DNA from: a virus
DNA length: 10,725 nt
Direction: 5' to 3' (one strand)
UHGV virus genome: UHGV-0134920
The position numbers and the translations under genes were made by a program. Position 1 is the first letter of the stretch, and every line of letters begins with the position of its first letter. This document shows positions 1 to 10,725 of this stretch, piece by piece. Under the pieces are notes generated by a model. It was not told where the DNA came from. It worked only from the letters and a program-made list of their open reading frames with translations, and made no database searches.

Positions 1-19
1 CGTGTGGAATCATATACAT

Positions 20-1261
20 ATGGCGAGAAAAACACCCCCATTAACCACGGTGCAGATCAAAGCAGCCAGACCAGCGGAAAAGGAATACACCCTACAGGAC
101 GGCGGAGGGCTTTTTCTCCTGGTCAAACCGTCCGGATCAAAACTCTGGCGATTTTCCTACTACCGGCCATCGGACAAAAAAAGAATATTGCTGAGTTTTG
201 GATCGCTTGATGATGTTTCCCTGGCTGATGCCAGAAAACGCCGTAGCGAGTACAGAGCGTTAATCAGTGCCGGAACTGACCCGCAGGGCCATGAGAAGAA
301 AAAACGAGAGGCAGAGGCCCGAAGACAAGGGAACACGTTCGAAAATGTGGCGGCGGCATGGTACCAGGTGAAAATCAGCCAGAATCTGGCCCCCAACACG
401 ATTAAAGACATCTGGCGATCGCTGGATAAATATGTATTCCCGTTCATCGGCAACACCCCAATAGACACCCTGACCGCTCGCAGGTTCGTTGAGGTGCTTA
501 CCCCCATCAAGGAGCGCGGCAACCTGGAAACACTCAAACGGGTTTTACAGCGCGTTAATGAGGTAATGGATTACGCCGCCAACAGTGGGCTGATTGATGC
601 CAATCCGGCTATGAATGTGCGTAAGGCGTTTCCCTCACCTGTAAAAAAACATATGCCAACAATCCGCCCCGAACAGCTGCCCGAGCTTATGCAGGCTTTA
701 TCAGTATCGGCAACAGAACGGCAGACCAGATTACTGATTGAATGGCAGTTACTGACCGTAACCCGTCCGGCCGAAGCGTCATCAACGCGGTGGGATGAAA
801 TCAACCTGGACGCGAAGCAATGGACGATACCTGCCGGACGCATGAAGATGCGCAGGGATCACGTTATCCCGCTTTCCGGTCAGGCTATGGCGGTACTGGA
901 GGCCATGAAACCAATCAGCCACCACCGCAATTACGTTTTCCCAAGTCTGAAAGACCCACAGCAGCCGATGAACAGCCAGACAGCTAACGCAGCATTGCGG
1001 CGTATGGGATTCGCTGGCGTGCTGGTGTCTCATGGATTACGCGCCATATTCAGCACAGCAGCGAACGAGGAAGGATTCGAGCCGGACGTAATAGAGGCGG
1101 CACTTGCCCACGTCGACACCAACGAAGTTAGACGGGCATACAACCGGAGCAACTACATAGAAAAACGCATCGTGCTGATGCGCTGGTGGGGCGAATTTGT
1201 CGAGGCTGCGGCGACGGGCGTAACCCTCGCCAGTGGTAAAAGGGGTATCCGAGCCGTGTAG
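20..1261 (+). CDS. int: tyrosine site-specific integrase (P4-type)
   Basis: Frame is open from position 2; first plausible start is ATG at 20 (MARKTPPLT...). N-terminus has the P4-type integrase pattern (LTxxQIKAAxPxEKEYxLxDGGGLxLLVKPSGSKxWRFxY). C-terminal catalytic region has HGLRAIFST (H-x-x-R) and RRAYNRSNY (Tyr nucleophile region). Stop TAG at 1259-1261. The att site would lie upstream of the window. Confidence 0.9.
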   Translation: MARKTPPLTTVQIKAARPAEKEYTLQDGGGLFLLVKPSGSKLWRFSYYRPSDKKRILLSFGSLDDVSLADARKRRSEYRALISAGTDPQGHEKKKREAEARRQGNTFENVAAAWYQVKISQNLAPNTIKDIWRSLDKYVFPFIGNTPIDTLTARRFVEVLTPIKERGNLETLKRVLQRVNEVMDYAANSGLIDANPAMNVRKAFPSPVKKHMPTIRPEQLPELMQALSVSATERQTRLLIEWQLLTVTRPAEASSTRWDEINLDAKQWTIPAGRMKMRRDHVIPLSGQAMAVLEAMKPISHHRNYVFPSLKDPQQPMNSQTANAALRRMGFAGVLVSHGLRAIFSTAANEEGFEPDVIEAALAHVDTNEVRRAYNRSNYIEKRIVLMRWWGEFVEAAATGVTLASGKRGIRAV

Positions 1262-1338
1262 CTGTACAGAAAACCAGTAAAAACTACGAAAACCATGTAA
1301 AACCGTCGTATAATTGCATCAAATTTAACGACAAGGCC

Positions 1339-1590
1339 GTGAAACATGAAACCGTTAAGATGCAAAAAAATATCAGATGCAATTGCGACGGGCTGCAACT
1401 GGCCCTGATGGTTCAGCATGAATTTTGGTCAACCTACGATCCGGAGGACAGGACGACGGCCCCATCAAAAAAACAGGTAGTAGATTTTCTGGTATCCCGT
1501 GGCGCTTCCAGAAATCTGGCGGTAAGTATTGATAAGGTCGTACGTCCGGCATCTATGAAGATCGGAGGCAGGCCCAAAAAATGGCGGTAA
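1339..1590 (+). CDS. hypothetical small protein (83 aa from GTG 1339; alternative ATG at 1360), basic C-terminus
   Basis: ORF in the int-alpA gap, followed immediately by an intrinsic terminator; no strong RBS and no recognisable family. Confidence 0.3.
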   Translation: MKHETVKMQKNIRCNCDGLQLALMVQHEFWSTYDPEDRTTAPSKKQVVDFLVSRGASRNLAVSIDKVVRPASMKIGGRPKKWR

Positions 1591-1600
1591 CAATCCTGGA

Positions 1601-1626
1601 AGCGGCAGAAATGCCGCTTTTTTTAT
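1601..1626 (+). terminator. rho-independent terminator
   Basis: Hairpin AGCGGCA-gaaa-TGCCGCT (1601-1617) followed by a T-run (tttttttata). Confidence 0.6.
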
Positions 1627-1651
1627 AATTCCATTTCAAATCATCAATATA

Positions 1652-1739
1652 AAAAACGGTGTATACCGTTTAAAAACGGTGGGAACTGTTTTTACCCATA
1701 TCCGATGATTTACCGTATTTGTCACCGGAATACACCGGA
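1652..1739. promoter_or_regulatory. repeat-containing control region upstream of alpA
   Basis: Direct repeat AAAAACGGTG at 1652-1661 and 1672-1681; dyad AACGGT-gtat-ACCGTT (1655-1670); direct repeat CACCGGA at 1723-1729 and 1733-1739; RBS-like AAGG at 1745-1748 before the ATG at 1758. Confidence 0.35.
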
Positions 1740-1757
1740 TTCACAAGGTAAATCACG

Positions 1758-1964
1758 ATGGAAGCAATCAGAAAAATTATCTTTCGCCAGGAAGTAAAAA
1801 AAATTATCCACATCAAGGCAGACAGCACGCTGCAAAGCATGATCAACGCCGGAGAATTTCCGCAGGGTTTTCGCGTTGGTTTACGCCGTCGCGGATGGTA
1901 TGAGGATGATGTGTTGGCCTGGCAGAAAGAACGCGAACAGGAAGCACGCGGAACGGCTGCTTAA
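1758..1964 (+). CDS. alpA: AlpA-family DNA-binding regulator / excisionase-like protein
   Basis: 68 aa; HTH region followed by the AlpA/Vis-type motif (GEFPQGFRVGLRRRGWYEDDVLAW); position right after int is typical. Stop TAA at 1962-1964. Confidence 0.8.
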   Translation: MEAIRKIIFRQEVKKIIHIKADSTLQSMINAGEFPQGFRVGLRRRGWYEDDVLAWQKEREQEARGTAA

Positions 1965-1996
1965 CGGGTATCACAGATATGACAAACACGAAAAAA

Positions 1997-2023
1997 GCGG
2001 CCCCGATATGGAGCCGCCTTTCT
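1997..2023. terminator. weak candidate bidirectional terminator between convergent alpA and minus-strand genes
   Basis: 5-bp GC stem GCGGC (1997-2001) / GCCGC (2013-2017), preceded by A6 (1991-1996) and followed by CTTTCT. Short stem, so weak. Confidence 0.25.
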
Positions 2024-2112
2024 GAACAATTAACCCGCTGCGCCTTATGTGTATGTGATCCCAAACATAAGCACGGGGATGATAGCCGCTATCAGGCTGG
2101 TGGGCAATGCAA

Positions 2113-2301
2113 TCAGTCTGGTTCAGTTCGTTGCCATACCTGCAATGAGCGCTTTTCCCTGTACTCTTTAAGGAATTGCTCAAGGGCAAAAGCACATGGC
2201 GCGAATCTTTCTGATTCATGCTCTATCTTTCTGCGCCGTCTTTTCCGTGCCGGTGATAATGTTTTGGTCAATTCTTTATCGGTCATTGTGTTGTCCTGCA
2301 T
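2113..2301 (-). CDS. doubtful small Arg/Lys-rich ORF (62 aa) downstream of the minus-strand regulator
   Basis: Sits in the only sizeable gap without a + strand gene (1965-2343), upstream of the candidate terminator on the minus strand. No convincing RBS; contains RKRRRRK. Confidence 0.2.
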   Translation of the reverse strand: MQDNTMTDKELTKTLSPARKRRRRKIEHESERFAPCAFALEQFLKEYREKRSLQVWQRTEPD

Positions 2302-2343
2302 AGCAATGCGCCGTAATACCTTACACCACGGCGCTGGTGATGG

Positions 2344-2649
2344 TTACTCCTGCTCTTTGGCCTTGCGGCGCTGTAGTTCTTCACGAGCGATGGCGATAAG
2401 TTGCCCGAGTTCTTCCGTAGCTTTAATACCAATTTTTTCCACTTGCGCCAATGCATCGAGAGAAGAAATCAGAGGATTTTCACTGCTTCCTTCTGCCTGG
2501 CGGCGGGCGATCTCCCCGCGCATGGCGGTTACTATGAATCCGGCGTTGCTTTCGCCGTCCAGTTTTACGGATTCCATGCCATCAAAAGCATCATGTGGGA
2601 TACGAATTGAAATCTGTTTTGATTTGTCGTTGATAGTGTTTTTTGCCAT
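2344..2649 (-). CDS. putative DNA-binding regulator (possibly ribbon-helix-helix), candidate island repressor
   Basis: 101 aa from ATG (reverse complement of 2647-2649) with GGAGAA RBS just upstream on the minus strand. N-terminal KQISIRIP segment is compatible with an RHH beta-strand. Divergent from the Icd/Ash/primase operon and adjacent to palindromic operators. The ORF-track start at 2688 is probably an upstream in-frame extension. Confidence 0.6.
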   Translation of the reverse strand: MAKNTINDKSKQISIRIPHDAFDGMESVKLDGESNAGFIVTAMRGEIARRQAEGSSENPLISSLDALAQVEKIGIKATEELGQLIAIAREELQRRKAKEQE

Positions 2650-2671
2650 GTGCATTCTCCTAAACAAAAGA

Positions 2672-2747
2672 TGTGATTCAGTATACACAAAAAAGAATCA
2701 CAAAAAACACTTGATCTGTGATTCAGTTGAATTTAATTTAAATCACA
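2672..2747. promoter_or_regulatory. divergent promoter/operator region with two related palindromic operators
   Basis: TGTGATTCAGT at 2672-2682 pairs with GAATCACA at 2695-2702; TGTGATTCAGT at 2717-2727 pairs with AATCACA at 2741-2747. GTATAC at 2681-2686 could give a minus-strand -10-like TATACT. The region lies between divergent start codons at 2649 (-) and 2837 (+). Confidence 0.6.
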
Positions 2748-2836
2748 CCTCAGTAAGAGGATGTAAACGACAACGCCCCGAACTGTTTGCGGCAGTAGCG
2801 GGGCGTCTAACCAAACCGTTAACAGGAGTAACGATT

Positions 2837-3034
2837 ATGGCTGGAACACAGCATACCCCACGTCTGGCGCACACACAAACTGCCTTTGTGTGGCGTTTTC
2901 TGGCACTGAGTGCCGGAGAATCTCAAATCATCCACGTAACCGCCTGGACGGAACGCGAAGCGCGTAGCCGTTGCCCGTCCGGTTGTGTTGCTGTATTCGC
3001 TGCCCGTATTCGCCAGGGGTCACATCATGCGTAA
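2837..3034 (+). CDS. Icd-like small protein (host cell division inhibitor-like family of P4-like elements)
   Basis: 65 aa; AGGAG RBS at 2824-2828; sequence FVWRF...TEREAR...ARIRQG recalled as the Icd-like signature (from memory, unverified). The upstream part of the 351-aa track ORF is rejected. Confidence 0.6.
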   Translation: MAGTQHTPRLAHTQTAFVWRFLALSAGESQIIHVTAWTEREARSRCPSGCVAVFAARIRQGSHHA

Positions 3035-3488
3035 AAACCGCTTGCAAAAAATTATCACGGGGCTGTATGCTTCCCCCGTCGCCCACATGGCGACCGGGTT
3101 TAGCAGCCTGAATACATCTGGCGGACAGCCGCCCACATCCGATAAGCGGTTTTTTTGTGTCCGTAAACCTACCCATACCCGCATTATGGCGGGGCGTAAC
3201 GGGGGAGCCTTTGTGCTCGCTGGTTTCCAGATGACCAGTCTGCTAACCCTGTTACGTCTCGCCACCATGTTTAGCAGCGTAGTAGCGAGACTCCTTAAAA
3301 TTCATCTGGGAGCCTTTCACATGGCTGTATTCGCACGCCCTTATTTTGTCTGGCGCTTTATGCAGTGCCTGACAGACAGTATTGCAATATTCACCGTTAC
3401 CGCTGCCACTGAGCGCGAAGCACGTGCACAGCTGCCGCACGCACATCTGATTTTTGTCGCCCGTATTCGTCAGGGGGTAGGCTTATGA
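3027..3488 (+). CDS. Ash-family-like protein with C-terminal Icd-like module
   Basis: ATG at 3027 overlaps the upstream stop by 8 nt. C-terminal ~55 aa (YFVWRFMQ...TEREARAQ...ARIRQG) are paralogous to the preceding 65-aa protein. An internal start near 3321 (MAVFARPYFVWRF) cannot be excluded. Stop overlaps the next start (ATGA at 3485-3488). Confidence 0.55.
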   Translation: MRKNRLQKIITGLYASPVAHMATGFSSLNTSGGQPPTSDKRFFCVRKPTHTRIMAGRNGGAFVLAGFQMTSLLTLLRLATMFSSVVARLLKIHLGAFHMAVFARPYFVWRFMQCLTDSIAIFTVTAATEREARAQLPHAHLIFVARIRQGVGL

Positions 3489-3715
3489 GCCAGGAAATCA
3501 CACTACAACAGGCAGCAGAACGCGCCCACCAAATCGAAGTTATTTGCGCACTGGCAGAGGATTACCCTGGCATGATGACCGACAGCGAATCAGGGGCAAT
3601 CATCGGCTTACTTAAACGCCTTAGCGGTGAGGTCTGCGTATTCCTGATCGATGAACAGGAAAGAAGAACGCTTATTTCTAACGAAAAAAAATGCGGAGGG
3701 GTACATGTGCAATAA
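3485..3715 (+). CDS. hypothetical protein (76 aa)
   Basis: Translationally coupled (ATGA overlap); CAGGGGG RBS-like sequence upstream; no recognisable family. Confidence 0.45.
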   Translation: MSQEITLQQAAERAHQIEVICALAEDYPGMMTDSESGAIIGLLKRLSGEVCVFLIDEQERRTLISNEKKCGGVHVQ

Positions 3716-3935
3716 AACCACACCGGACGCAGCAGAAGAAGCAATGCAAATACTGATACGTGCGCTCGTTGATGTTACCCACATGGTGGAGATTATGGAG
3801 AGAAAATCACAGTCGGAGCACGACAAAAGAAAACTTAAAACAATAAAAATAATTGCCAAAAACTCGCTGATAAAAGTTACAGACATCCTTAATGAGGACA
3901 TTAAAAGAATAAGGGAGAAAATTTGTGATGCATAA
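3705..3935 (+). CDS. hypothetical protein (76 aa), AT-rich gene
   Basis: ATG at 3705 preceded by GGAGGG (3696-3701); Lys/Glu-rich helical-looking protein; composition visibly more AT-rich than flanking genes. Confidence 0.45.
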   Translation: MCNKTTPDAAEEAMQILIRALVDVTHMVEIMERKSQSEHDKRKLKTIKIIAKNSLIKVTDILNEDIKRIREKICDA

Positions 3936-4155
3936 AATCCATTTTGAAGTATTAATCCACTCTGAAAACGCATTAATTAAAGCACGCGAAATGAATGCGT
4001 TGTTAATTAAATTAATTGAAGTGCCGGAAGGTGGCGAAGATCATTCATCATTAATGTTTGCCGCTGTTCAGACATTATTGACACCTGTTATTGATGAACT
4101 CAATAAGGCTATGGCAATTCACGAGAATAATAAAGCGCCCCACACCGGAGAATAA
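3928..4155 (+). CDS. hypothetical protein (75 aa), AT-rich gene
   Basis: ATG at 3928 overlaps the upstream stop at 3933-3935; AT-rich; no recognisable family. Confidence 0.45.
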   Translation: MHKIHFEVLIHSENALIKAREMNALLIKLIEVPEGGEDHSSLMFAAVQTLLTPVIDELNKAMAIHENNKAPHTGE

Positions 4156-4160
4156 AAATA

Positions 4161-4460
4161 ATGAAACTTAAATATTCTGGCTTAACTGCCAGTGGCAAAA
4201 CTCGCACTAAATTCATGCGCGGTGATATTTACCGCGACCAGTACGGCGGCACGGTAATGATTAAGGGCGTGGAGGAACGGCGCGTAACCTACCGTCGTGA
4301 AGGCTACGAATATGATTGCGTGATGCCTGTTTATCAGTTCGATCGTGATTTTTCTCTGGTGCAGGCCGTACCGCGTAACGTGCCCACCAGCAGGGAGAAA
4401 GCACGCGCCAATATTCAGGAAATAAAAAAGATGCTTAACGTATTCAGGGGTAAAAAATGA
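4161..4460 (+). CDS. hypothetical protein (99 aa)
   Basis: GGAG at 4146-4149 upstream; stop overlaps the primase start (ATGA at 4457-4460), indicating operon coupling with the replication gene. Confidence 0.5.
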   Translation: MKLKYSGLTASGKTRTKFMRGDIYRDQYGGTVMIKGVEERRVTYRREGYEYDCVMPVYQFDRDFSLVQAVPRNVPTSREKARANIQEIKKMLNVFRGKK

Positions 4461-6205
4461 AACTGGCACCGAACGTAAAAAAACAGCCACGCGGAATAAA
4501 ACACAAAGACACAGAGGTAATTATTTTCGCGGGTAGTGATGCCTGGTCGCACGCGAAACAATGGCAGGAGCAGGATGGCCCCGCATCCGGCGATAATGTG
4601 CCGCCTGTGTGGCTTGGGCCAAATCAGCTTGCCGAACTTGATGCACTGAAAATTGTTCCGGATGGAAAAAAACGCGTAAGGCTGTACCAGGCCGGAGAAC
4701 TGGATTTGGTGGAGACCAAAAAGATTGGTCAGAAGCTGGCGGCGGCAGATATTCAGGACGCAAATTTTTACCCCGAAGGAATGCACGTCCAGAAGTGTGA
4801 AAACTGGCGGCGCTATCTGAATGCTGAGCGTGAAAATATTGCCGCAGGGCTTACCATGCCGGAGCAGAAAAATACGCAACTGGCACAAATGGCAGACAGT
4901 GAGCGCGCACAGATGCTTGCTGGTCGATTTGATGGCGTTTGTGTGCATCCGGAAAGTGAAATCGTTCACGTATGGCGCGGCGGGGTATGGTGTCCGGTCA
5001 GCACAATGGAACTTAGCCGCGAAATGGTGGCGATCTATTCAGAGCACAGGGCCACTTTCAGCAAGCGCGTAATCAATAACGCCGTGGAAGCGTTAAAAGT
5101 TATTGCCGAACCAATGGGCGAGCCGTCCGGCGATTTGCTGCCGTTCGCCAATGGTGCGCTTGACCTGAAAACGGGGGAATTTTCCCCGCACACGCCGGAG
5201 AACTGGATCACCACGCACAACGGCATTGAGTACACGCCACCAGCACCAGGGGAGAATATCTGCGACAACGCGCCAAACTTTCATAAATGGCTTGAGCACG
5301 CAGCCGGAAAAGACCCGCGCAAGATGATGCGTATATGTGCCGCGCTGTACATGATTATGGCGAACCGGTACGACTGGCAGATGTTTATTGAGGCCACCGG
5401 AGACGGCGGGAGCGGCAAAAGTACATTCACCCACATCGCCAGCCTTTTAGCGGGGAAACAAAACACGGTAAGCGCGGAAATGACATCGCTTGATGATGCT
5501 GGTGGGCGTGCGCAGGTTGTCGGGAGTCGTCTTATCGTCCTGGCAGACCAGCCGAAATATACAGGCGAAGGCACGGGCATCAAGAAAATCACGGGCGGCG
5601 ACCCCGTGGAAATCAACCCGAAATATGAAAAGCGTTTCACTACGGTAATCAGGGCGGTGGTGCTGGCGACCAATAACAACCCGATGATATTCACCGAACG
5701 GGCCGGAGGCGTGTCACGTCGTCGGGTTATTTTCCGCTTCGACAATATCGTAAGCGAGGCAGAAAAAGACAGGGAGCTACCGGAAAAGATCGCGGCTGAA
5801 ATCCCAGTCATTATCCGCCGCTTGCTGGCGAACTTTACCGACCCTGAGAAGGCACGGGCTTTACTACTGGAACAGCGTGACGGTGATGAAGCTCTGGCAA
5901 TAAAGCAACAGACGGATCCGGTTATTGAGTTTTGCCAGTTCCTGAATTTTCTGGAGGAAGCGCGCGGCCTGATGATGGGTGGCGGTGGCGATTCAGTGAA
6001 GTACACGACCAGGAACAGCCTTTACCGCGTCTATCTGGCGTTTATGGCATACGCCGGAAGGAACAAGCCGCTAAACGTGGCTGAGTTCAGCAAAGCTATG
6101 AAGCCAGCGGCGAAAGTTTACGGGCATGAATATATTACGCGGAAAGTCAATGGAGTTACGCAGACTAACGCAATAACAACAGACGATTGCGACGCGTTTT
6201 TATAA
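4457..6205 (+). CDS. replication initiator, P4 alpha C-terminal-like SF3 helicase/NTPase (primase-helicase family)
   Basis: 582 aa; Walker A GDGGSGKST, Walker B-like RLIVLADQP and SF3 motif C VVLATNNNP. Followed immediately by an iteron array. A catalytic primase (toprim/AEP) domain cannot be confirmed by eye. Confidence 0.85.
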   Translation: MKLAPNVKKQPRGIKHKDTEVIIFAGSDAWSHAKQWQEQDGPASGDNVPPVWLGPNQLAELDALKIVPDGKKRVRLYQAGELDLVETKKIGQKLAAADIQDANFYPEGMHVQKCENWRRYLNAERENIAAGLTMPEQKNTQLAQMADSERAQMLAGRFDGVCVHPESEIVHVWRGGVWCPVSTMELSREMVAIYSEHRATFSKRVINNAVEALKVIAEPMGEPSGDLLPFANGALDLKTGEFSPHTPENWITTHNGIEYTPPAPGENICDNAPNFHKWLEHAAGKDPRKMMRICAALYMIMANRYDWQMFIEATGDGGSGKSTFTHIASLLAGKQNTVSAEMTSLDDAGGRAQVVGSRLIVLADQPKYTGEGTGIKKITGGDPVEINPKYEKRFTTVIRAVVLATNNNPMIFTERAGGVSRRRVIFRFDNIVSEAEKDRELPEKIAAEIPVIIRRLLANFTDPEKARALLLEQRDGDEALAIKQQTDPVIEFCQFLNFLEEARGLMMGGGGDSVKYTTRNSLYRVYLAFMAYAGRNKPLNVAEFSKAMKPAAKVYGHEYITRKVNGVTQTNAITTDDCDAFL

Positions 6206-6213
6206 TTTTTTGC

Positions 6214-6445
6214 AAAAGCCCTCTACCTCCTCTACCTGAAAGGAATAAATGCATATTATTCAATATGATAAGTGGGTAGATGGCCAGGTAGAAGGCTAAT
6301 AAAAACCCTCTACCTCTTCTACATGATTTTATCAATTCCAGGTAGACAGGTAGAGGTCTGGTAGAAGGGGATTAAAAGCCCTCTACCATGCTGAAAGGTG
6401 CGCCATTGCTGGATTTTTGCAGTGCTTGGTAGAAGGGGTAGAGGG
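6214..6445. repeat. iteron array, candidate replication origin
   Basis: CTCTACC at 6221-6227, 6230-6236, 6308-6314 and 6381-6387; reverse-orientation GGTAGA(G/A) at 6275-6280, 6287-6292, 6341-6346, 6349-6355, 6360-6365, 6428-6433 and 6437-6443. Longer unit AAAAGCCCTCTACC at 6214-6227 and 6374-6387, with a one-mismatch copy at 6301-6314. AT-rich stretch at 6241-6270. Confidence 0.6.
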
Positions 6446-6491
6446 AGGGAGGCACAACTCAAAACTTTTTAAACGAGGGGGGTAAAAATAA

Positions 6492-6806
6492 ATGCGCATA
6501 CATCAAAATAACTTAACAAACATATCAGCCGAAAACATGAATCAGGGGCGACAAATGGCCATAATTCACAGAGACAGAACACAGGCAAAATATAAAGCGT
6601 TAGACATGACAGAGCTTTCCCTAAAGGTGGCAATCAGAACGATAGACCGCCACACGCGGGAAGGATACGCGAAGGAACATCCCGACCTGATAAGCGCATT
6701 CATGACCACGGCGGCGGCAAACTTTGCCACGCTGACAGAACGGGAGATTGCCGAAGCGGAACAGGTAACAACCATCAACGTTAAAACCGGAGAGCAGACA
6801 GCATGA
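6492..6806 (+). CDS. hypothetical protein (104 aa)
   Basis: GAGGGGGG RBS at 6475-6482; stop overlaps the ssb start (ATGA at 6803-6806). Alternative internal starts at 6536 and 6555. Confidence 0.5.
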   Translation: MRIHQNNLTNISAENMNQGRQMAIIHRDRTQAKYKALDMTELSLKVAIRTIDRHTREGYAKEHPDLISAFMTTAAANFATLTEREIAEAEQVTTINVKTGEQTA

Positions 6807-7213
6807 CAGCACAGATAGCAGCTTACGGGCGGCTGGTGGACGACCCGCAGGTAAAACAGACCAGTAAGGGCACACCGATGACGCTGGCGCGTATGGCGGT
6901 ATCGCTGCCATGCAGCCAGGCACAGGATGGACAGGCGACGTTATGGCTATCGGTCATCGCATTTGGTAAGCAGGCCGACTTCCTGGCTAAACATCAAAAA
7001 GGCGACGTTGCCAGCGTATCCGGCACGATGCAGGTCAGCCAGTGGACCGGACAGAACGGGGAAACGCGGCAGGGCTGGCAGGTTATTGCAGACAGCGTAA
7101 TCAGTGCCCGTGCGGCACGTCCTGGCGGGAACAGACGCAAGACCACAGGCACACAGGGTAATCAGCCACCAGCGGGAGGCGATGCCCCTTACGGTGATGA
7201 TATTCCGTTCTGA
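6803..7213 (+). CDS. ssb: single-stranded DNA-binding protein
   Basis: 136 aa; OB-fold SSB pattern (AYGRLVDDPQVKQTSKG...WLSVIAFGKQADFLAKHQKGDVASVSGTMQVSQW), Gly/Pro/Gln-rich linker and acidic C-terminal tip ...GDDIPF typical of bacterial and phage SSBs. Confidence 0.85.
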   Translation: MTAQIAAYGRLVDDPQVKQTSKGTPMTLARMAVSLPCSQAQDGQATLWLSVIAFGKQADFLAKHQKGDVASVSGTMQVSQWTGQNGETRQGWQVIADSVISARAARPGGNRRKTTGTQGNQPPAGGDAPYGDDIPF

Positions 7214-7223
7214 GGGGGTGAGG

Positions 7224-7472
7224 ATGGTACATGACCGCATAGCGGAGGAACTCGAGGCAAAAGGCTTTTACCGGAGGGCGGCGGCACGATGGGGTGAAGT
7301 CATGCAACTGGTGGAGACAGACAAGGAACGGCATCAGGTTACGATGCGACGGCTGGAATGTTCCAGGAAGGCACAGAGGCCACCGGAGCCGCCAACGGAG
7401 AACTATGCAGACCTGAGAAATGCAGTAAATCGCACTTACGCAGACATGGGGCTGAGCAAATTAGCAGAGTAG
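7224..7472 (+). CDS. possible PerC-family-like transcriptional regulator (tentative)
   Basis: 82 aa from ATG 7224 (alternative GTG 7218). Motif EELEAKGFYRRAAARW resembles the conserved PerC/Pch segment as recalled. The N-terminal part of the 122-aa track ORF overlaps ssb out of frame and is rejected. Confidence 0.4.
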   Translation: MVHDRIAEELEAKGFYRRAAARWGEVMQLVETDKERHQVTMRRLECSRKAQRPPEPPTENYADLRNAVNRTYADMGLSKLAE

Positions 7473-7495
7473 GAATACCAGAACCACACCACACA

Positions 7496-7518
7496 GCCGG
7501 AGCAATCCGGCTTTTTTG
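7496..7518 (+). terminator. rho-independent terminator (first of two)
   Basis: GCCGG-agcaat-CCGGC hairpin followed by TTTTTTG. Confidence 0.5.
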
Positions 7519-7523
7519 CGCCC

Positions 7524-7566
7524 AAAAAAAGCCCGATAAGGTCAGAGGTGGCTTATCGGGCTTTTG
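7524..7566. terminator. bidirectional rho-independent terminator
   Basis: 10-bp stem GCCCGATAAG (7531-7540) / CTTATCGGGC (7552-7561), flanked by A7 upstream and TTTTG downstream. Confidence 0.6.
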
Positions 7567-7641
7567 CATATGAGGTTTTTTGGTGCACTGACACACATGA
7601 TCGGGATAATCATTTCATAATTTGCAACGCAACTCAATATC

Positions 7642-7696
7642 ATTGCACAAAATGCAATCATGATTATAATCATAACTGGATGAACATCCAGTTATG
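7642..7696 (+). promoter_or_regulatory. candidate sigma70-type promoter of the head operon overlapped by palindromic operator-like sites
   Basis: -35-like TTGCAC (7643-7648), 16-nt spacer, consensus -10 TATAAT (7665-7670). Palindromes ATTGCA-caaaa-TGCAAT (7642-7658), TGATTATAATCA (7661-7672) and perfect 12-bp arms CATAACTGGATG-aa-CATCCAGTTATG (7671-7696). Confidence 0.5.
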
Positions 7697-7726
7697 ATTT
7701 TTTAAGTCAAAGAGGAATTTCTTACT

Positions 7727-7933
7727 ATGGCTGAAGAGAAAAAAGGCGGTGTTTCGGTGTACATAAGCCCCGACATCGTGAAGGCGCTCAAGGAACGCCA
7801 CCAGCAGAACGTAAAAGCAGGCATTGCGGCAGGACTTGATCCGCTGGCGATGGTTGAGCCGTCAACAGGCTGGCAGGTACGCGCCTATTTACGCGCGGCG
7901 CTGGGTATGAATCAGGTTCACGGGGGTGAATAA
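7727..7933 (+). CDS. hypothetical protein (68 aa), first gene of the head operon
   Basis: AGAGGA RBS at 7711-7716; stop TAA overlaps the capsid gene ATG (7931-7935). Confidence 0.5.
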   Translation: MAEEKKGGVSVYISPDIVKALKERHQQNVKAGIAAGLDPLAMVEPSTGWQVRAYLRAALGMNQVHGGE

Positions 7934-8988
7934 TGACAGTAAAAGCAATAGCACTTAACACTAACCAGCTTTTTGCGTACCTGAATCGCGAGGATATTGC
8001 GGAATTTAAATTCAGTCCGCTGTTTACCGCGCTGTTTTTCCCGAACGTGGCGACATTCAACACACAGGACATCATGTTAGATAACCTGGATATTGAAGAA
8101 GTCACTATGTCGGCGTTTTGTTCGCCTATGGTGGGTAGCCAGGTTCAGCGCGATAAAGGGTACGAAACAAGCATTATTCGCCCTGGCTACATGAAGCCAA
8201 AACACGAAATCGATCCATTAAAAACAATAATGCGCATGGCTGGAGAAGATCCAGCACAGCTTAACGACCCTACCTACCGCCGTATGCGCCTGATTACTGG
8301 CAACATGCGCCGCCAGATAAACGCCATTAAAGCGCGCGAGGAATGGCTGGCGGTAAATGCGGTAACGACCGGAAAAAACATCATTGAGGGCGAAGGCATA
8401 GAGCGCTATGAAATCGACTGGAAGATACCGGAAAAAAACATCATAGAGCAGGCCGACGGTAAAAAATGGTCAGAGCAGGACAAAGACATACACGACCCAA
8501 TCTATGACATTGAGCTATACGCAGATCAGGCAGGTTGCCCCGCAAACGTCATGATTATGGGCGTTGATGTATGGCGCATGTTACGCAGCTTTAAAAAATT
8601 CCGTGAACTGTACGATCTCTCCCGTGGTTCAGAATCCGCCGCAGAGCTGGCATGTAAAAACCTGGGCGAAGTGGTGAGCTTTAAAGGCTATCTTGGTGAT
8701 CTGGCCCTTATCGTCTATTCCGGCAAATACACTGACAGCGACGGCACAGAAAAATATTTCCTTGAGCCTGATTTGCTGGTCCTGGGCAACACCAACAATA
8801 AAGGGCTGGTGGCCTATGGTGCGATTATGGAACAGGAAGCGGTAAGAACGGGCGCAACGCAAAACATGTTTTACCCGAAAAACTGGATTGAGGACGGCGA
8901 TCCGGCGATTGAGTACGTGCAGACGCACAGCGCACCGCAGCCGGTTCCGGCAGATATTCGCAAATTTGTTACCGTCAAAATTGGTTAA
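7933..8988 (+). CDS. major capsid protein, lambda gpE family
   Basis: 351 aa; colinear similarity to lambda gpE as recalled (FKFSPLF..LFF; RPGYMKPKHEIDP; EDPAQLNDPTYRRMRLITGNMR; KGYLGDLALIVYSGKY; VLGNT; YPKNW; SAPQPVPAD). Confidence 0.9.
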   Translation: MTVKAIALNTNQLFAYLNREDIAEFKFSPLFTALFFPNVATFNTQDIMLDNLDIEEVTMSAFCSPMVGSQVQRDKGYETSIIRPGYMKPKHEIDPLKTIMRMAGEDPAQLNDPTYRRMRLITGNMRRQINAIKAREEWLAVNAVTTGKNIIEGEGIERYEIDWKIPEKNIIEQADGKKWSEQDKDIHDPIYDIELYADQAGCPANVMIMGVDVWRMLRSFKKFRELYDLSRGSESAAELACKNLGEVVSFKGYLGDLALIVYSGKYTDSDGTEKYFLEPDLLVLGNTNNKGLVAYGAIMEQEAVRTGATQNMFYPKNWIEDGDPAIEYVQTHSAPQPVPADIRKFVTVKIG

Positions 8989-9000
8989 CGGGGGGATTCT

Positions 9001-9336
9001 ATGGACACTCCATACATTGAGTTATTTGCAGGCAGTCAGCAGGTATCCACGACGCTGGTACATTTTGCCGCTGATGCTGGCGTTATTCAGGAATTTACCC
9101 CGCTGATGCTGGCGGACAATGGCGAGTTTAAGCCGTGGGATGGTCAGGAATCTGGCAAGGCTGTTTATCTGACTTCGTACCCCGTGGACACGTCAAAGCA
9201 GAAATCAGCACAGTGTTACAAGACGGGGATATTTAATATCGCCGCCGTAAACTGGCCTGAGAGCGCCGACACTGACGCGAAAAAATGCGCCGCCTTTGCG
9301 GGTTCTGGCGTATCCGTTCAGCCGCTGGCGCGATAA
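9001..9336 (+). CDS. head decoration protein, lambda gpD family
   Basis: 111 aa; matches to lambda gpD as recalled (TPLMLAD, KPWDG, YKTGIFN, WPESADTDAKKCAAFAGSG). Confidence 0.85.
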   Translation: MDTPYIELFAGSQQVSTTLVHFAADAGVIQEFTPLMLADNGEFKPWDGQESGKAVYLTSYPVDTSKQKSAQCYKTGIFNIAAVNWPESADTDAKKCAAFAGSGVSVQPLAR

Positions 9337-9348
9337 GCAGGGGAAACG

Positions 9349-9762
9349 ATGGCAACGAATGAAAGCATCATGGCGCTACCGCTGGCGAGTAAATTTAAAG
9401 CAGAAGCGCGGGCAATGGCTGACAGAGGTTTATCAACCTACGAGGCCGTATATCAACTCAACAAACTGGAAGAACAGGACAAGCCGCGCGCTGATGCGAT
9501 TATGGCGCTTCATGAGCATAAAGACTATCAGCCGCTGTTACGTGCAATGGCAAACGTGCCATGTATTAGCGTCGATAATGCTCGTGAAATCCTGAACATG
9601 ACCATAGAGCAGGAGCGCCCAAAGGTTGCACCAGAGCTTACCGCAGCCTTTGAAAACTTTATGGACATGCACAGCCCGCAAGCCGTATCAGCTGGCATGG
9701 CGTACGATGGCAGAAACCAGGGCGATGACGGCGACATCGATCGCATACTGAAAACCATCTGA
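9349..9762 (+). CDS. hypothetical protein (137 aa), last gene of the head operon
   Basis: CAGGGGAAA RBS-like sequence upstream of ATG 9349; acidic; followed by a strong terminator; no recognisable family. Confidence 0.55.
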   Translation: MATNESIMALPLASKFKAEARAMADRGLSTYEAVYQLNKLEEQDKPRADAIMALHEHKDYQPLLRAMANVPCISVDNAREILNMTIEQERPKVAPELTAAFENFMDMHSPQAVSAGMAYDGRNQGDDGDIDRILKTI

Positions 9763-9768
9763 GACAAG

Positions 9769-9792
9769 GCCGGAGAAATCCGGCTTTTTTTT
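9769..9792 (+). terminator. rho-independent terminator
   Basis: GCCGGA-gaaa-TCCGGC hairpin followed by T8 (9785-9792). Confidence 0.8.
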
Positions 9793-9824
9793 ACGGGTCC
9801 TTTCCGGCATATGGACCCGTTACG

Positions 9825-9858
9825 GGGCGGCGACCTCGCGGTTTTTCGCTATTTATGA
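9825..9858. other. lambda-type cos site (cosN core plus conserved flank)
   Basis: GGGCGGCGACCT at 9825-9836 equals the lambda 12-nt cohesive end as recalled. The next 22 nt CGCGGTTTTTCGCTATTTATGA (9837-9858) differ from the recalled lambda left-end CGCGGGTTTTCGCTATTTATGA at one position. Lies ~135 bp upstream of a Nu1-like gene, as in lambda. Confidence 0.7.
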
Positions 9859-9930
9859 GCCTTTTCAGGGGGGTGGTGGTGGTTTTGTTGTTTGCTCTAT
9901 CTTTATGAATGAAAAGGGAAAGATGCAAAC

Positions 9931-9968
9931 AATACACCAACCTGAAGCAGTAATTAAGTTGGTGTATT
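9931..9968. promoter_or_regulatory. 11-bp perfect inverted repeat abutting the terS start (candidate cosB/TerS-binding or translational control element)
   Basis: AATACACCAAC (9931-9941) and GTTGGTGTATT (9958-9968) separated by 16 nt; ends 1 nt before the ATG at 9970. Confidence 0.4.
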
Positions 9969-9969
9969 A

Positions 9970-10512
9970 ATGAAATCGCACCTGATGAACAAAAAAAACA
10001 TGGCGAAAAGCTGCCGTGTAAGTGCGACAGCGTTCGACAAGTGGGGAGTGACTCCCGTTGAACGTAAAGGCCGTGAGGCGTTTTACGATGTTGCCAGCGT
10101 GATAGACAATAGGGTTAACAATGCAATTAGCCAGCTTACAAACGACAAAGGCGATATTGATGATGATGAACTCTTACGAGTCAGGATCAGATTACTGACA
10201 GCACAGGCGGAGGCGCAGGAACTTAAAAACGAGCGCGATCGCGGTGACGTGATCGATACTGAGTTTTGCCTGTACGCGCTTTCAAAGCTGGCGAGTCAGA
10301 TTTCATCAATCATGGACAGCCTCCCGCTTACTATGCAAAGGAGCTTCCCACAGATTACCCCCGCCATGCTGGATAGGCTTAAAAGGGAAGTGGTTAAAGC
10401 CTGTAATGCCAGTGCCAGAGTTGCCGACAACCTCCCACAGATACTGGCTGATTACTTGAAAGAAACAACCGGAAACGTACCGGAAAAGTTGCAGCCGAAT
10501 AAAGATAAGTAA
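9970..10512 (+). CDS. terS: terminase small subunit, lambda Nu1-like with divergent N-terminal DNA-binding domain
   Basis: 180 aa (alternative start ATG 9985, MNKKN..., aligns better with the Nu1 N-terminus MEVNKKQ). C-terminal two thirds are similar to lambda Nu1 as recalled (RLLTAQAEAQELKNERDRGDVIDTEFCLYALSKLASQISSIMDSLPLTMQRSFPQ versus RLTRAQADAQELKNARDSAEVVETAFCTFVLSRIAGEIASILDGLPLSVQRRFPE). N-terminal ~55 aa are much less conserved. Confidence 0.8.
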   Translation: MKSHLMNKKNMAKSCRVSATAFDKWGVTPVERKGREAFYDVASVIDNRVNNAISQLTNDKGDIDDDELLRVRIRLLTAQAEAQELKNERDRGDVIDTEFCLYALSKLASQISSIMDSLPLTMQRSFPQITPAMLDRLKREVVKACNASARVADNLPQILADYLKETTGNVPEKLQPNKDK

Positions 10513-10523
10513 CGTAGTACGCT

Positions 10524-10725
10524 ATGACTGAATCCGAAATACTGCGATTAATCCGCCGCGTCTCTGGAATCAGCCAGCAGGCTGACGAACAGACCACGCA
10601 GCCGGACAGCGTGACAGCCGAAAACTATGCGCGTGTTGTTGCTGAGGTGATGCGCCGTGATGGTATAGAACTTAATGGCGTGGATATGCGCAACATACGA
10701 ACCAGAGTTCTTGAGTTGCTGGCCT
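10524..10725 (+). CDS. hypothetical protein, 5' partial (runs off the window)
   Basis: ATG at 10524, 12 nt after the terS stop; open to the window end (MTESEILRLIRRVSGISQQADEQ...). No resemblance to the lambda gpA N-terminus as recalled. Confidence 0.45.
   Translation, partial: MTESEILRLIRRVSGISQQADEQTTQPDSVTAENYARVVAEVMRRDGIELNGVDMRNIRTRVLELLA

Follow-up and report, generated by a model that had tools for sequence, protein, structure and literature searches.

A classical phage-inducible chromosomal island with lambda-type shell genes and a TerS-type cos cassette in virus genome UHGV-0134920

The virus genome UHGV-0134920 was analysed as one stretch of 10,725 nt (hereafter the window), and we conclude, with a probability of roughly 0.9, that it represents ~10.7 kb of a phage-inducible chromosomal island (PICI) of the classical Gram-negative type, belonging to the EcCICFT073 / EcCIED1a family and to the group whose attachment (att) site lies at tRNA-Pro/yejM. 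The window is almost wholly coding, on the + strand. An earlier reading made from the sequence alone (the sequence-only reading) had described a satellite backbone joined to lambda-type capsid, decoration, cos and small terminase (TerS) genes. These genes are indeed present (PF03864, PF02924, an exact cosN and PF07471). It had also left open whether the arrangement was undescribed, and here the answer is that the layout has been published: positions 7265-9866 match EcCICFT073 at 95.4% DNA identity (Fillol-Salom et al. 2018 ISME J, PMC6092414; 2019 Mol Cell, PMC6739421), and the SatelliteFinder core is present. The layout is that of a standard Enterobacterial PICI, with nothing new in its architecture.

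Islands collinear with the window cover at least 80% of it in 61 complete E. coli genomes. Complete relatives are ~11.2 kb long, with copies of the att repeat 11.1-11.3 kb apart. In strains S1-CAM-02-A (L001) and Nissle 1917 (L002) the island is flanked by core genes, with tRNA-Pro/yejM on one side and yejO/narP on the other, and is bounded by a 26-37 nt direct repeat, TTTTAGTTATACGTTT(A/G)GTTATACGG, the copies of which are 11,139 and 11,257 bp apart. This repeat differs by no more than a 2-nt GT indel from the att core reported for EcCIED1a.1 and EcCIATCC25922. The first island gene in the relatives encodes the integrase, and the tyrosine integrase of the window (2-1261, +; Pfam Phage_integrase 5.7e-29, Phage_int_M and Arm-DNA-bind_3; annotated from position 20 in relatives) is 98% identical to those of both yejM/proL islands. 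At the other end, the window runs off inside a conserved 93-aa gene (5' part at 10524-10725, +; phrog_1561), which aligns with 18133-18334 of the S1-CAM-02-A locus and also with the gene after rppA in CFT073. In the relatives this gene stands alone after the window's last complete gene, and the island ends ~0.7 kb past the window at the att repeat beside yejO/narP. The right-hand repeat and the overall island size, which the sequence-only reading had proposed to locate, are available from the relatives.

These boundaries also bear on the possibility that the window is the terminal part of a lambdoid prophage, ordinary or decaying, for which its gpE-, gpD- and Nu1-type genes and its lambda cos could be taken as evidence. 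We regard this as extremely improbable. The relatives show an ~11.2 kb element between core genes in complete genomes, and portal, protease, large terminase (TerL), tail and lysis genes were found neither among the open reading frames (ORFs) of the window (Pfam, PHROG) nor in the relative islands, which upholds the earlier preference for a satellite over a prophage end. The order in the window is capsid, decoration, scaffold, cos and TerS, whereas every lambdoid prophage locus recovered in our scans has the order Nu1-A-W-B-C-D-E; the complete lambdoid series, Nu1-A-W-B-C/Nu3-D-E-FI-FII with tail and lysis genes, does not occur in the window. Within 7480-10725, DNA likeness to phages is confined to ~80 bp at cos, and the genes are under purifying selection (see below) rather than decaying.

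The gene content points to a PICI in several ways. The SatelliteFinder PICI core comprises an integrase, a regulator, a primase-replicase, a capsid-morphogenesis gene and a small terminase, and all five can be counted in the window, the regulator by a sub-threshold AlpA score; complete "Type A" PICIs have been recorded in E. coli (SatelliteFinder, de Sousa 2023). An AlpA-, MerR- or Stl-type regulator that follows int in the same orientation is a criterion for Gram-negative PICIs (Fillol-Salom 2018; de Sousa 2023). The window has an AlpA-like helix-turn-helix regulator or excision factor (1758-1964, +), in the same position as AlpA of EcCICFT073 and 100% identical to a protein of the Nissle island. 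The integrase is at one end, a primase-replicase is accompanied by an origin with repeats, and both a capsid homologue and a small terminase are present. A size of roughly 8-15 kb, an att site of its own and the lack of tail, lysis, portal and TerL genes complete the description of the group; the window has no ORF of these kinds, and size and att repeats are taken here from the relatives.

Some points weigh against this assignment. Neither att site is within the window, and the site of this copy is therefore deduced from the relatives that share the 98% identical integrase. The AlpA call combines a Pfam score below the cut-off (17.6 bits, cut-off 21) with 28% identity to EcCICFT073 AlpA (E 2e-7). 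With respect to packaging, the binding of TerS to cosB and the contact between TerS and TerL are predictions from sequence only. TerS-bearing E. coli PICIs were noted in 2018 (EcCIIHE3034 and EcCI18098; PMC6092414), and both TerS-bearing islands tried at that time showed poor or no transfer from their native strains. TerS-type E. coli PICIs have no known helper phage. Helper-induced excision, replication and high-frequency transfer have been demonstrated for EcCICFT073 only.

The Pri-Rep primase and SF3-type helicase initiator (4457-6205, +; D5_N 4.1e-15, DUF5906, Pox_D5) is 90% identical to its EcCICFT073 counterpart. It is followed by an iteron replication origin at 6214-6445, in which six exact copies of CCTCTACC are found in both orientations within 6220-6444 (0.13 expected in the whole window). 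Downstream are a conserved hypothetical gene annotated in all relatives (6492-6806, +; phrog_1231 3.5e-49), the single-stranded DNA-binding protein SSB (6803-7213, +; PF00436 1.7e-16) and an accessory PerC-family regulator (7224-7472, +; PF06069 2.1e-35). Of the satellite backbone that the sequence-only reading had listed, int, the AlpA-like gene, Icd-like genes, the primase-helicase with its iterons and SSB all stand, and Ash is unconfirmed: the window gave no Pfam or NCBIfam match to it, and one relative has an ash pseudogene only.

A P4-like satellite would share several of these components, namely the integrase, the AlpA-like and Icd-like genes, an antisense RNA of the C4/CI type and a primase that scores just below the cut-off of the P4-family model TIGR01613 (106.9 versus 108.7 bits). 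However, homologues of Sid, Psu, Delta and Epsilon are absent from the ORFs searched (Pfam, PHROGs and NCBIfam), the cos site is of the lambda type and not of the P2/P4 type, and the close relative of the Pri-Rep protein is that of a PICI. We consider it very improbable that the window is a P4-like element.

The early and replication operon is closed by hairpins at 7495-7565 (+), a terminator-like structure at 7495-7512 followed by a T run and a perfect inverted repeat at 7527-7565. The next operon is preceded by a predicted promoter-like site at 7614-7643 and a perfect 14-15 bp hairpin with a T run at 7668-7699 (together 7614-7699, +). This hairpin region is ~20 nt ahead of the operon start and has an RNA folding energy of -22.8 kcal/mol (z -3.9); judging from its sequence, the 7668-7699 hairpin may serve as an operator, or it may terminate transcription close to the promoter unless read through. 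Across the junction the GC content falls from 0.59 to ~0.46-0.47, and this drop, like the terminators, might be expected if a satellite backbone and phage head genes had been joined in an assembly chimera at 7480-7700. That possibility, raised in the sequence-only reading, is practically eliminated by unbroken single alignments to three complete genomes that run through the junction (among them 3925-9870 with the S1-CAM-02-A island and 7265-9866 with CFT073) and by the same layout in E. coli AVS0542 (L061).

The second operon encodes four proteins, which we refer to as the capsid module. A 68-aa protein (7727-7933, +; c1498 homologue, phrog_3255 8.4e-37) comes first, its stop codon overlapping the start codon of the capsid gene; it has no similarity to lambda gpW, also of 68 aa, and no match in our collection of phages. 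Then follow a gpE-type major capsid protein (7933-8988, +; c1499 homologue, PF03864 1.1e-49), a gpD-type head decoration protein (9001-9336, +; c1500 homologue, PF02924 1e-17) and a 137-aa protein (9349-9762, +; c1501 homologue, phrog_1999 6.3e-65), and the operon is closed by a predicted terminator (9766-9787, +). The four proteins are 93-99% identical to the CFT073 copies, the capsid protein 95% (c1499) and the 68-aa protein 98.5%. Over its full length the capsid protein is 43% identical to lambda gpE, and the decoration protein is 37% identical to gpD. NCBIfam has no match for any protein of the module. The premise of the sequence-only reading, that P4 and PICIs do not encode a major capsid protein, is wrong for Gram-negative PICIs: c1499 and c1500 were named capsid protein and head decoration protein in 2018 (PMC6092414), and a later paper records a capsid gene in 21 of 29 reference Gram-negative PICIs. 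A Logan contig (P0030, 463 aa) has the capsid (PF03864) and decoration (PF02924) domains fused in one protein, probably through a sequencing error in the 12 nt that separate these genes.

Profile evidence identifies the 137-aa gene that follows the decoration gene as a homologue of the lambda Nu3-type scaffold. Its residues ~46-119 correspond to the C-terminal portion of such scaffolds (phrog_53 C-terminus, 1.2e-10), lambda Nu3 residues 117-200 match phrog_1999 at 2.7e-26, and hhalign places the protein with Nu3-type C-termini at a probability of 96.9% (E 1.7e-10). An intermediate is provided by phage 204576, in which a protease/scaffold ORF that matches Nu3 is encoded directly upstream of a gpD homologue, and the end of this ORF is 39% identical to the 137-aa protein. 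The homology is visible only through this phage protein, the PHROG profiles and hhalign; direct BLASTP against lambda gpC/Nu3 was not significant, full-library phmmer added three distant relatives and no more, and PDB sequence searches gave no meaningful match for this protein or for TerS. The name "phage head-tail connector protein" on some RefSeq copies was considered and set aside, as no NCBIfam model is behind it and the profiles favour a Nu3-type scaffold. In Table S2 of the 2018 paper (PMC6092414) c1501 has no assigned function. The scaffold assignment is an addition of the present analysis, as are the purifying selection on the capsid genes, the C4 RNA upstream of an Icd-like gene and the marker positions implied by the names of the EcCICFT073 derivatives, all described below.

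The capsid module is maintained by selection, although no phenotype has been found for it so far. Pairwise ratios of nonsynonymous to synonymous substitution (dN/dS) are 0.12-0.14 for the capsid gene, 0.08-0.30 for the decoration gene and 0.13-0.26 for the scaffold homologue. They are similar to those of int, pri and ssb (0.07-0.13), which argues that purifying selection keeps the capsid genes. The module was found in 598 of 5426 complete E. coli genomes and is intact as a unit in 592 of these 598. No phage in the collection has a capsid protein more than 48% identical to this one, and DNA likeness to phages is limited to cos; we therefore take the module to belong to an old satellite lineage rather than to a recent capture. 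In E. coli AVS0542 an island at the cspD-clpS site, whose integrase is a different one, carries the module (positions 10001-12036 of the locus) with 100% DNA identity to that of the window, and thus whole modules move between PICIs with different sites. In this sense the mosaic or modular island of the sequence-only reading holds. Literature searches returned no paper that gives a function to PICI capsid, decoration or 137-aa genes. It is of interest that three lambda-type shell proteins are under purifying selection while a phenotype has yet to be found.

A scan of species genomes with a single capsid protein found nothing, and a profile scan of species-representative genomes recovered mostly lambdoid prophages and lambda contamination, with four satellite loci only (L006, L007, L008 and L042). 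In all four the capsid gene is followed by the decoration gene, and TerS comes next in two. Those in Cedecea (L007) and Kosakonia (L042) are embedded in a prophage, flanked by its homologues of lambda D and E, which fits published reports of helper-embedded PICIs with the helper's capsid gene as their integration site. This second satellite lineage has a capsid-decoration pair 53-55% identical to that of the window and does not have the 68-aa gene. In place of the Nu3-like scaffold, a protein of 127-129 aa follows the decoration gene; Pfam recognises an AlpA domain in the L008 copy, which the other three resemble by eye. We also considered as a satellite, and rejected, the 19.9 kb "phage" record ON470596, whose capsid protein is 44% identical; it represents part of a myovirus that has head genes like those of lambda. 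Contigs with lambda head genes at 100% protein identity (L013, L017, L019-L023 and others) occur in species-representative assemblies from unrelated taxa, namely Neobacillus, Oceanobacillus, Shewanella, Leeuwenhoekiella and Pseudomonas, and are most likely contamination with laboratory lambda DNA. Short contigs from Kitasatospora, Bradyrhizobium and others have lambda-gpE-like matches that may have the same origin.

Judged by its gene content, the island is not capsid-forming in the sense of the capsid-forming PICIs (cf-PICIs), because it lacks portal, protease and TerL. The capsid-forming strategy proposed in the sequence-only reading has no positive support: a connector is absent as well (neither a head-tail adaptor or connector nor an HNH gene was found among the window ORFs by Pfam and PHROG), and in EcCICFT073 deletion of c1499 or c1500 altered neither transfer nor interference. 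With lambda as the helper of EcCICFT073, moreover, all packaged DNA was phage-sized.

A hybrid strategy may still be considered, in which the operon at 7727-9762 would be a shell kit and, given the right natural helper, satellite-encoded and possibly smaller shells would be built on a helper portal with the helper's protease, TerL and tails. Capsid, decoration and scaffold are the shell proteins of lambda, and the module has homologues of all three. In favour of this idea, the genes are undamaged and evolve under purifying selection, the module is kept whole in nearly all of the E. coli genomes that carry it, the capsid-decoration pair is also kept in the second satellite lineage, and the divergence from phage capsids points to an old satellite lineage. 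The published negatives, in addition, come from islands named c1501::tetA or c1499::cat, and c1501 is the putative scaffold gene. By their names alone, every tested EcCICFT073 derivative had its marker inside the capsid module, placed in the Nu3-like scaffold gene or substituted for the capsid gene, and neither "no phenotype" nor "phage-sized DNA only" was therefore ever shown for an intact module. However, autonomous shells are impossible without portal, protease, adaptor or connector and TerL, and the EcCICFT073 results with lambda and with the two deletions speak against the idea. Four island copies of ~11.3 kb would amount to ~45 kb, which would fit a normal lambda head, and the second satellite lineage does without a scaffold homologue. 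On balance we find the hybrid strategy unlikely. If true, it would be a strategy between classical PICIs and cf-PICIs that could have been missed through the in-module markers.

The cos site (9796-9870, +) consists of a cosQ-like ACGGGTCCTTTCCGG, the cosN sequence GGGCGGCGACCT, which is an exact lambda match and occurs once in the window (9825-9836), and a conserved right flank. The ~75 bp cosQ/cosN flank aligns with lambda and also with the cos of CFT073 and Nissle. A candidate cosB follows (9871-9969, +), with the inverted repeat AATACACCAAC at 9931-9941 and 9958-9968, and then a full-length Nu1-type TerS of 180 aa (9970-10512, +; PF07471 2.3e-23), which is 35% identical to lambda Nu1 over residues 6-166 and 46% identical to N15 gp1. 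The alignment with Nu1 extends to near the C-terminus, the end of Nu1 that in lambda binds gpA, the large terminase.

Similarity between the window and EcCICFT073 ends at 9866 and restarts at 10524. Between these points, the window and Nissle have the identical cosB and a 180-aa TerS, whereas EcCICFT073 has rppA, another cosB and a second cos in inverted orientation. PICIs of the Rpp type encode an Rpp protein that forms a heterocomplex with the TerS of the helper. The window is not of this type, a Nu1-type TerS being at the rppA position, and BLASTP between TerS and RppA gave nothing significant. The cosB of the window is unrelated to those of EcCICFT073 and lambda. Given that the TerS and RppA cassettes each have their own cosB, cosB co-varies with the specificity protein while cosN stays identical to that of lambda. 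Most likely, as far as can be inferred from these sequences, the island TerS reads its own cosB, perhaps through the AATACACCAAC inverted repeat at 9931-9968, and recruits the TerL of the helper. The swap of cosB plus TerS for cosB plus Rpp amounts to a natural experiment in packaging specificity.

The architecture is common. A cassette probe (window 9880-10515, most of cosB plus terS) matched in 769 of 5426 complete E. coli genomes, to be set beside the 598 with the capsid module, and it also matched inside the catalogued EcCIRM12579. TerS-type cos packaging without an identified helper is a further point of interest. In the closest overall relative, the S1-CAM-02-A island, the slot between the 137-aa and 93-aa genes (17470-18133) has neither TerS nor Rpp; it contains an inverted cos copy and an AT-rich stretch without a convincing ORF, a third state of the cassette.

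Several parts of the proposed life cycle have a basis in experiments with EcCICFT073, in which the functions of Int, AlpA and Pri-Rep/ori and cos-dependent packaging by lambda and phi80 have been shown. The DNA itself establishes the gene content, cos and the iterons, where the island ends in its relatives, and that the capsid genes are under purifying selection. In the island described here, a lambdoid helper would turn on the AlpA-led early operon, and Int and AlpA would excise the island. Pri-Rep would then fire the iteron origin at 6214-6445 with the island SSB, producing concatemers. The second operon would make the 68-aa protein, the gpE-type capsid protein, the gpD-type decoration protein and the Nu3-type scaffold homologue. 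We infer that the Nu1-type TerS would bind the island-specific cosB beside the lambda-identical cosN and recruit the helper large terminase, and that island DNA would be cut and packaged into heads with helper tails; any role of the capsid module in this scheme is similarly conjectural.

The early region between the AlpA-like gene and the Pri-Rep gene contains a YlcI/YnfO-family gene (2344-2688, -; NF041551 4.1e-18), which occupies the same place in the Nissle, AVS0542 and L063 islands. A first Icd-like segment (2885-3034, +; NF033153 3.4e-17, domain ~2885-3016 in the translation of 2690-3034) and a second one (3345-3488, +; NF033153 2.8e-13, domain ~3345-3473), the latter at the end of an ORF at 2985-3488, flank two RNA elements. 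These are a c4-a1b1-like target element of C4 RNA (3065-3114, +; Rfam RF03163 45.5 bits, gathering 46.7, E 1.3e-9) and a C4 antisense RNA gene of the P1/P7 immI type (3182-3269, +; RF01695 72.7 bits, gathering 45, full model matched). Target, antisense RNA and the second Icd-like segment make up a P1 immI-type cassette inside the island at 3065-3488, and the S1-CAM-02-A island has two copies. C4 RNA was not detected in EcCICFT073, the Nissle island or the AVS0542 island, and for this reason we consider the cassette variable and reject the idea that C4 RNA is a general PICI repressor. The literature searched contains no paper connecting C4 RNA with PICIs. Four small early genes (76, 94, 76 and 99 aa; 3485-4460, +) follow, which belong to PHROG families without known function, the last with DUF4222 (PF13973 5.3e-24); they gave no defence-system match in PADLOC.

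From the perspective of known systems, it is helpful to consider what the window shares with each. The cf-PICIs (EcCIEDL933; bioRxiv 10.1101/2022.09.08.507074) have a similar int-alpA-rep backbone with a capsid gene and TerS of their own. However, they also encode protease, portal, head-tail connectors, HNH and TerL, and thereby whole heads; the window is without all of these. In SaPIbov5, as in the window, a homologue of the helper capsid protein (Ccm) is carried on the satellite. CpmB of SaPI1 is a short alternative scaffold with the capsid-binding C-terminus of the helper scaffold, and the putative 137-aa Nu3-like protein is comparable to it in layout. Ccm and CpmB redirect capsid size, whereas no size redirection has been seen for the E. 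coli module with lambda.

The protein families and cosN are those of lambda: E at 43%, D at 37%, Nu1 at 35%, Nu3 by profile, and an identical cosN. The order is reversed in the window (E, D, Nu3-like, cos, Nu1), which lacks the genes A, W, B, C, FI and FII, and the scaffold homologue is not nested in a protease gene as it is in lambda. Closer relatives are the islands of the yejM-luxR att group (EcCIED1a.1, EcCIATCC25922 and the Nissle 1917 island; Table S1 of PMC6092414), which all have the att repeat and site in common. The Nissle island has a TerS 100% identical over 174 aa, the identical cosB and the 98% identical integrase, but differs from the window in Pri-Rep (90%), SSB (72%), a different block of small early genes and a second, inverted cos that it has kept.

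EcCICFT073 differs from the window in its integrase and site (ycfD-phoQ versus the yejM group), in an AlpA of only 28% identity and in that no C4 RNA was detected. Its packaging cassette comprises a cosB of its own, RppA and a second cos in inverted orientation; that of the window comprises another cosB, a full-length Nu1-type TerS and one cos only. Its right end runs from PerC through the 68-aa protein (c1498), c1499, c1500 and the 137-aa protein (c1501) to RppA and the 93-aa protein. Overall, EcCICFT073 and the window share a common plan of int, alpA, an Icd-like gene, DUF4222, pri-rep, ori, SSB, PerC, the 68-aa gene, capsid, decoration, the 137-aa gene, cos, a specificity gene and the 93-aa gene.

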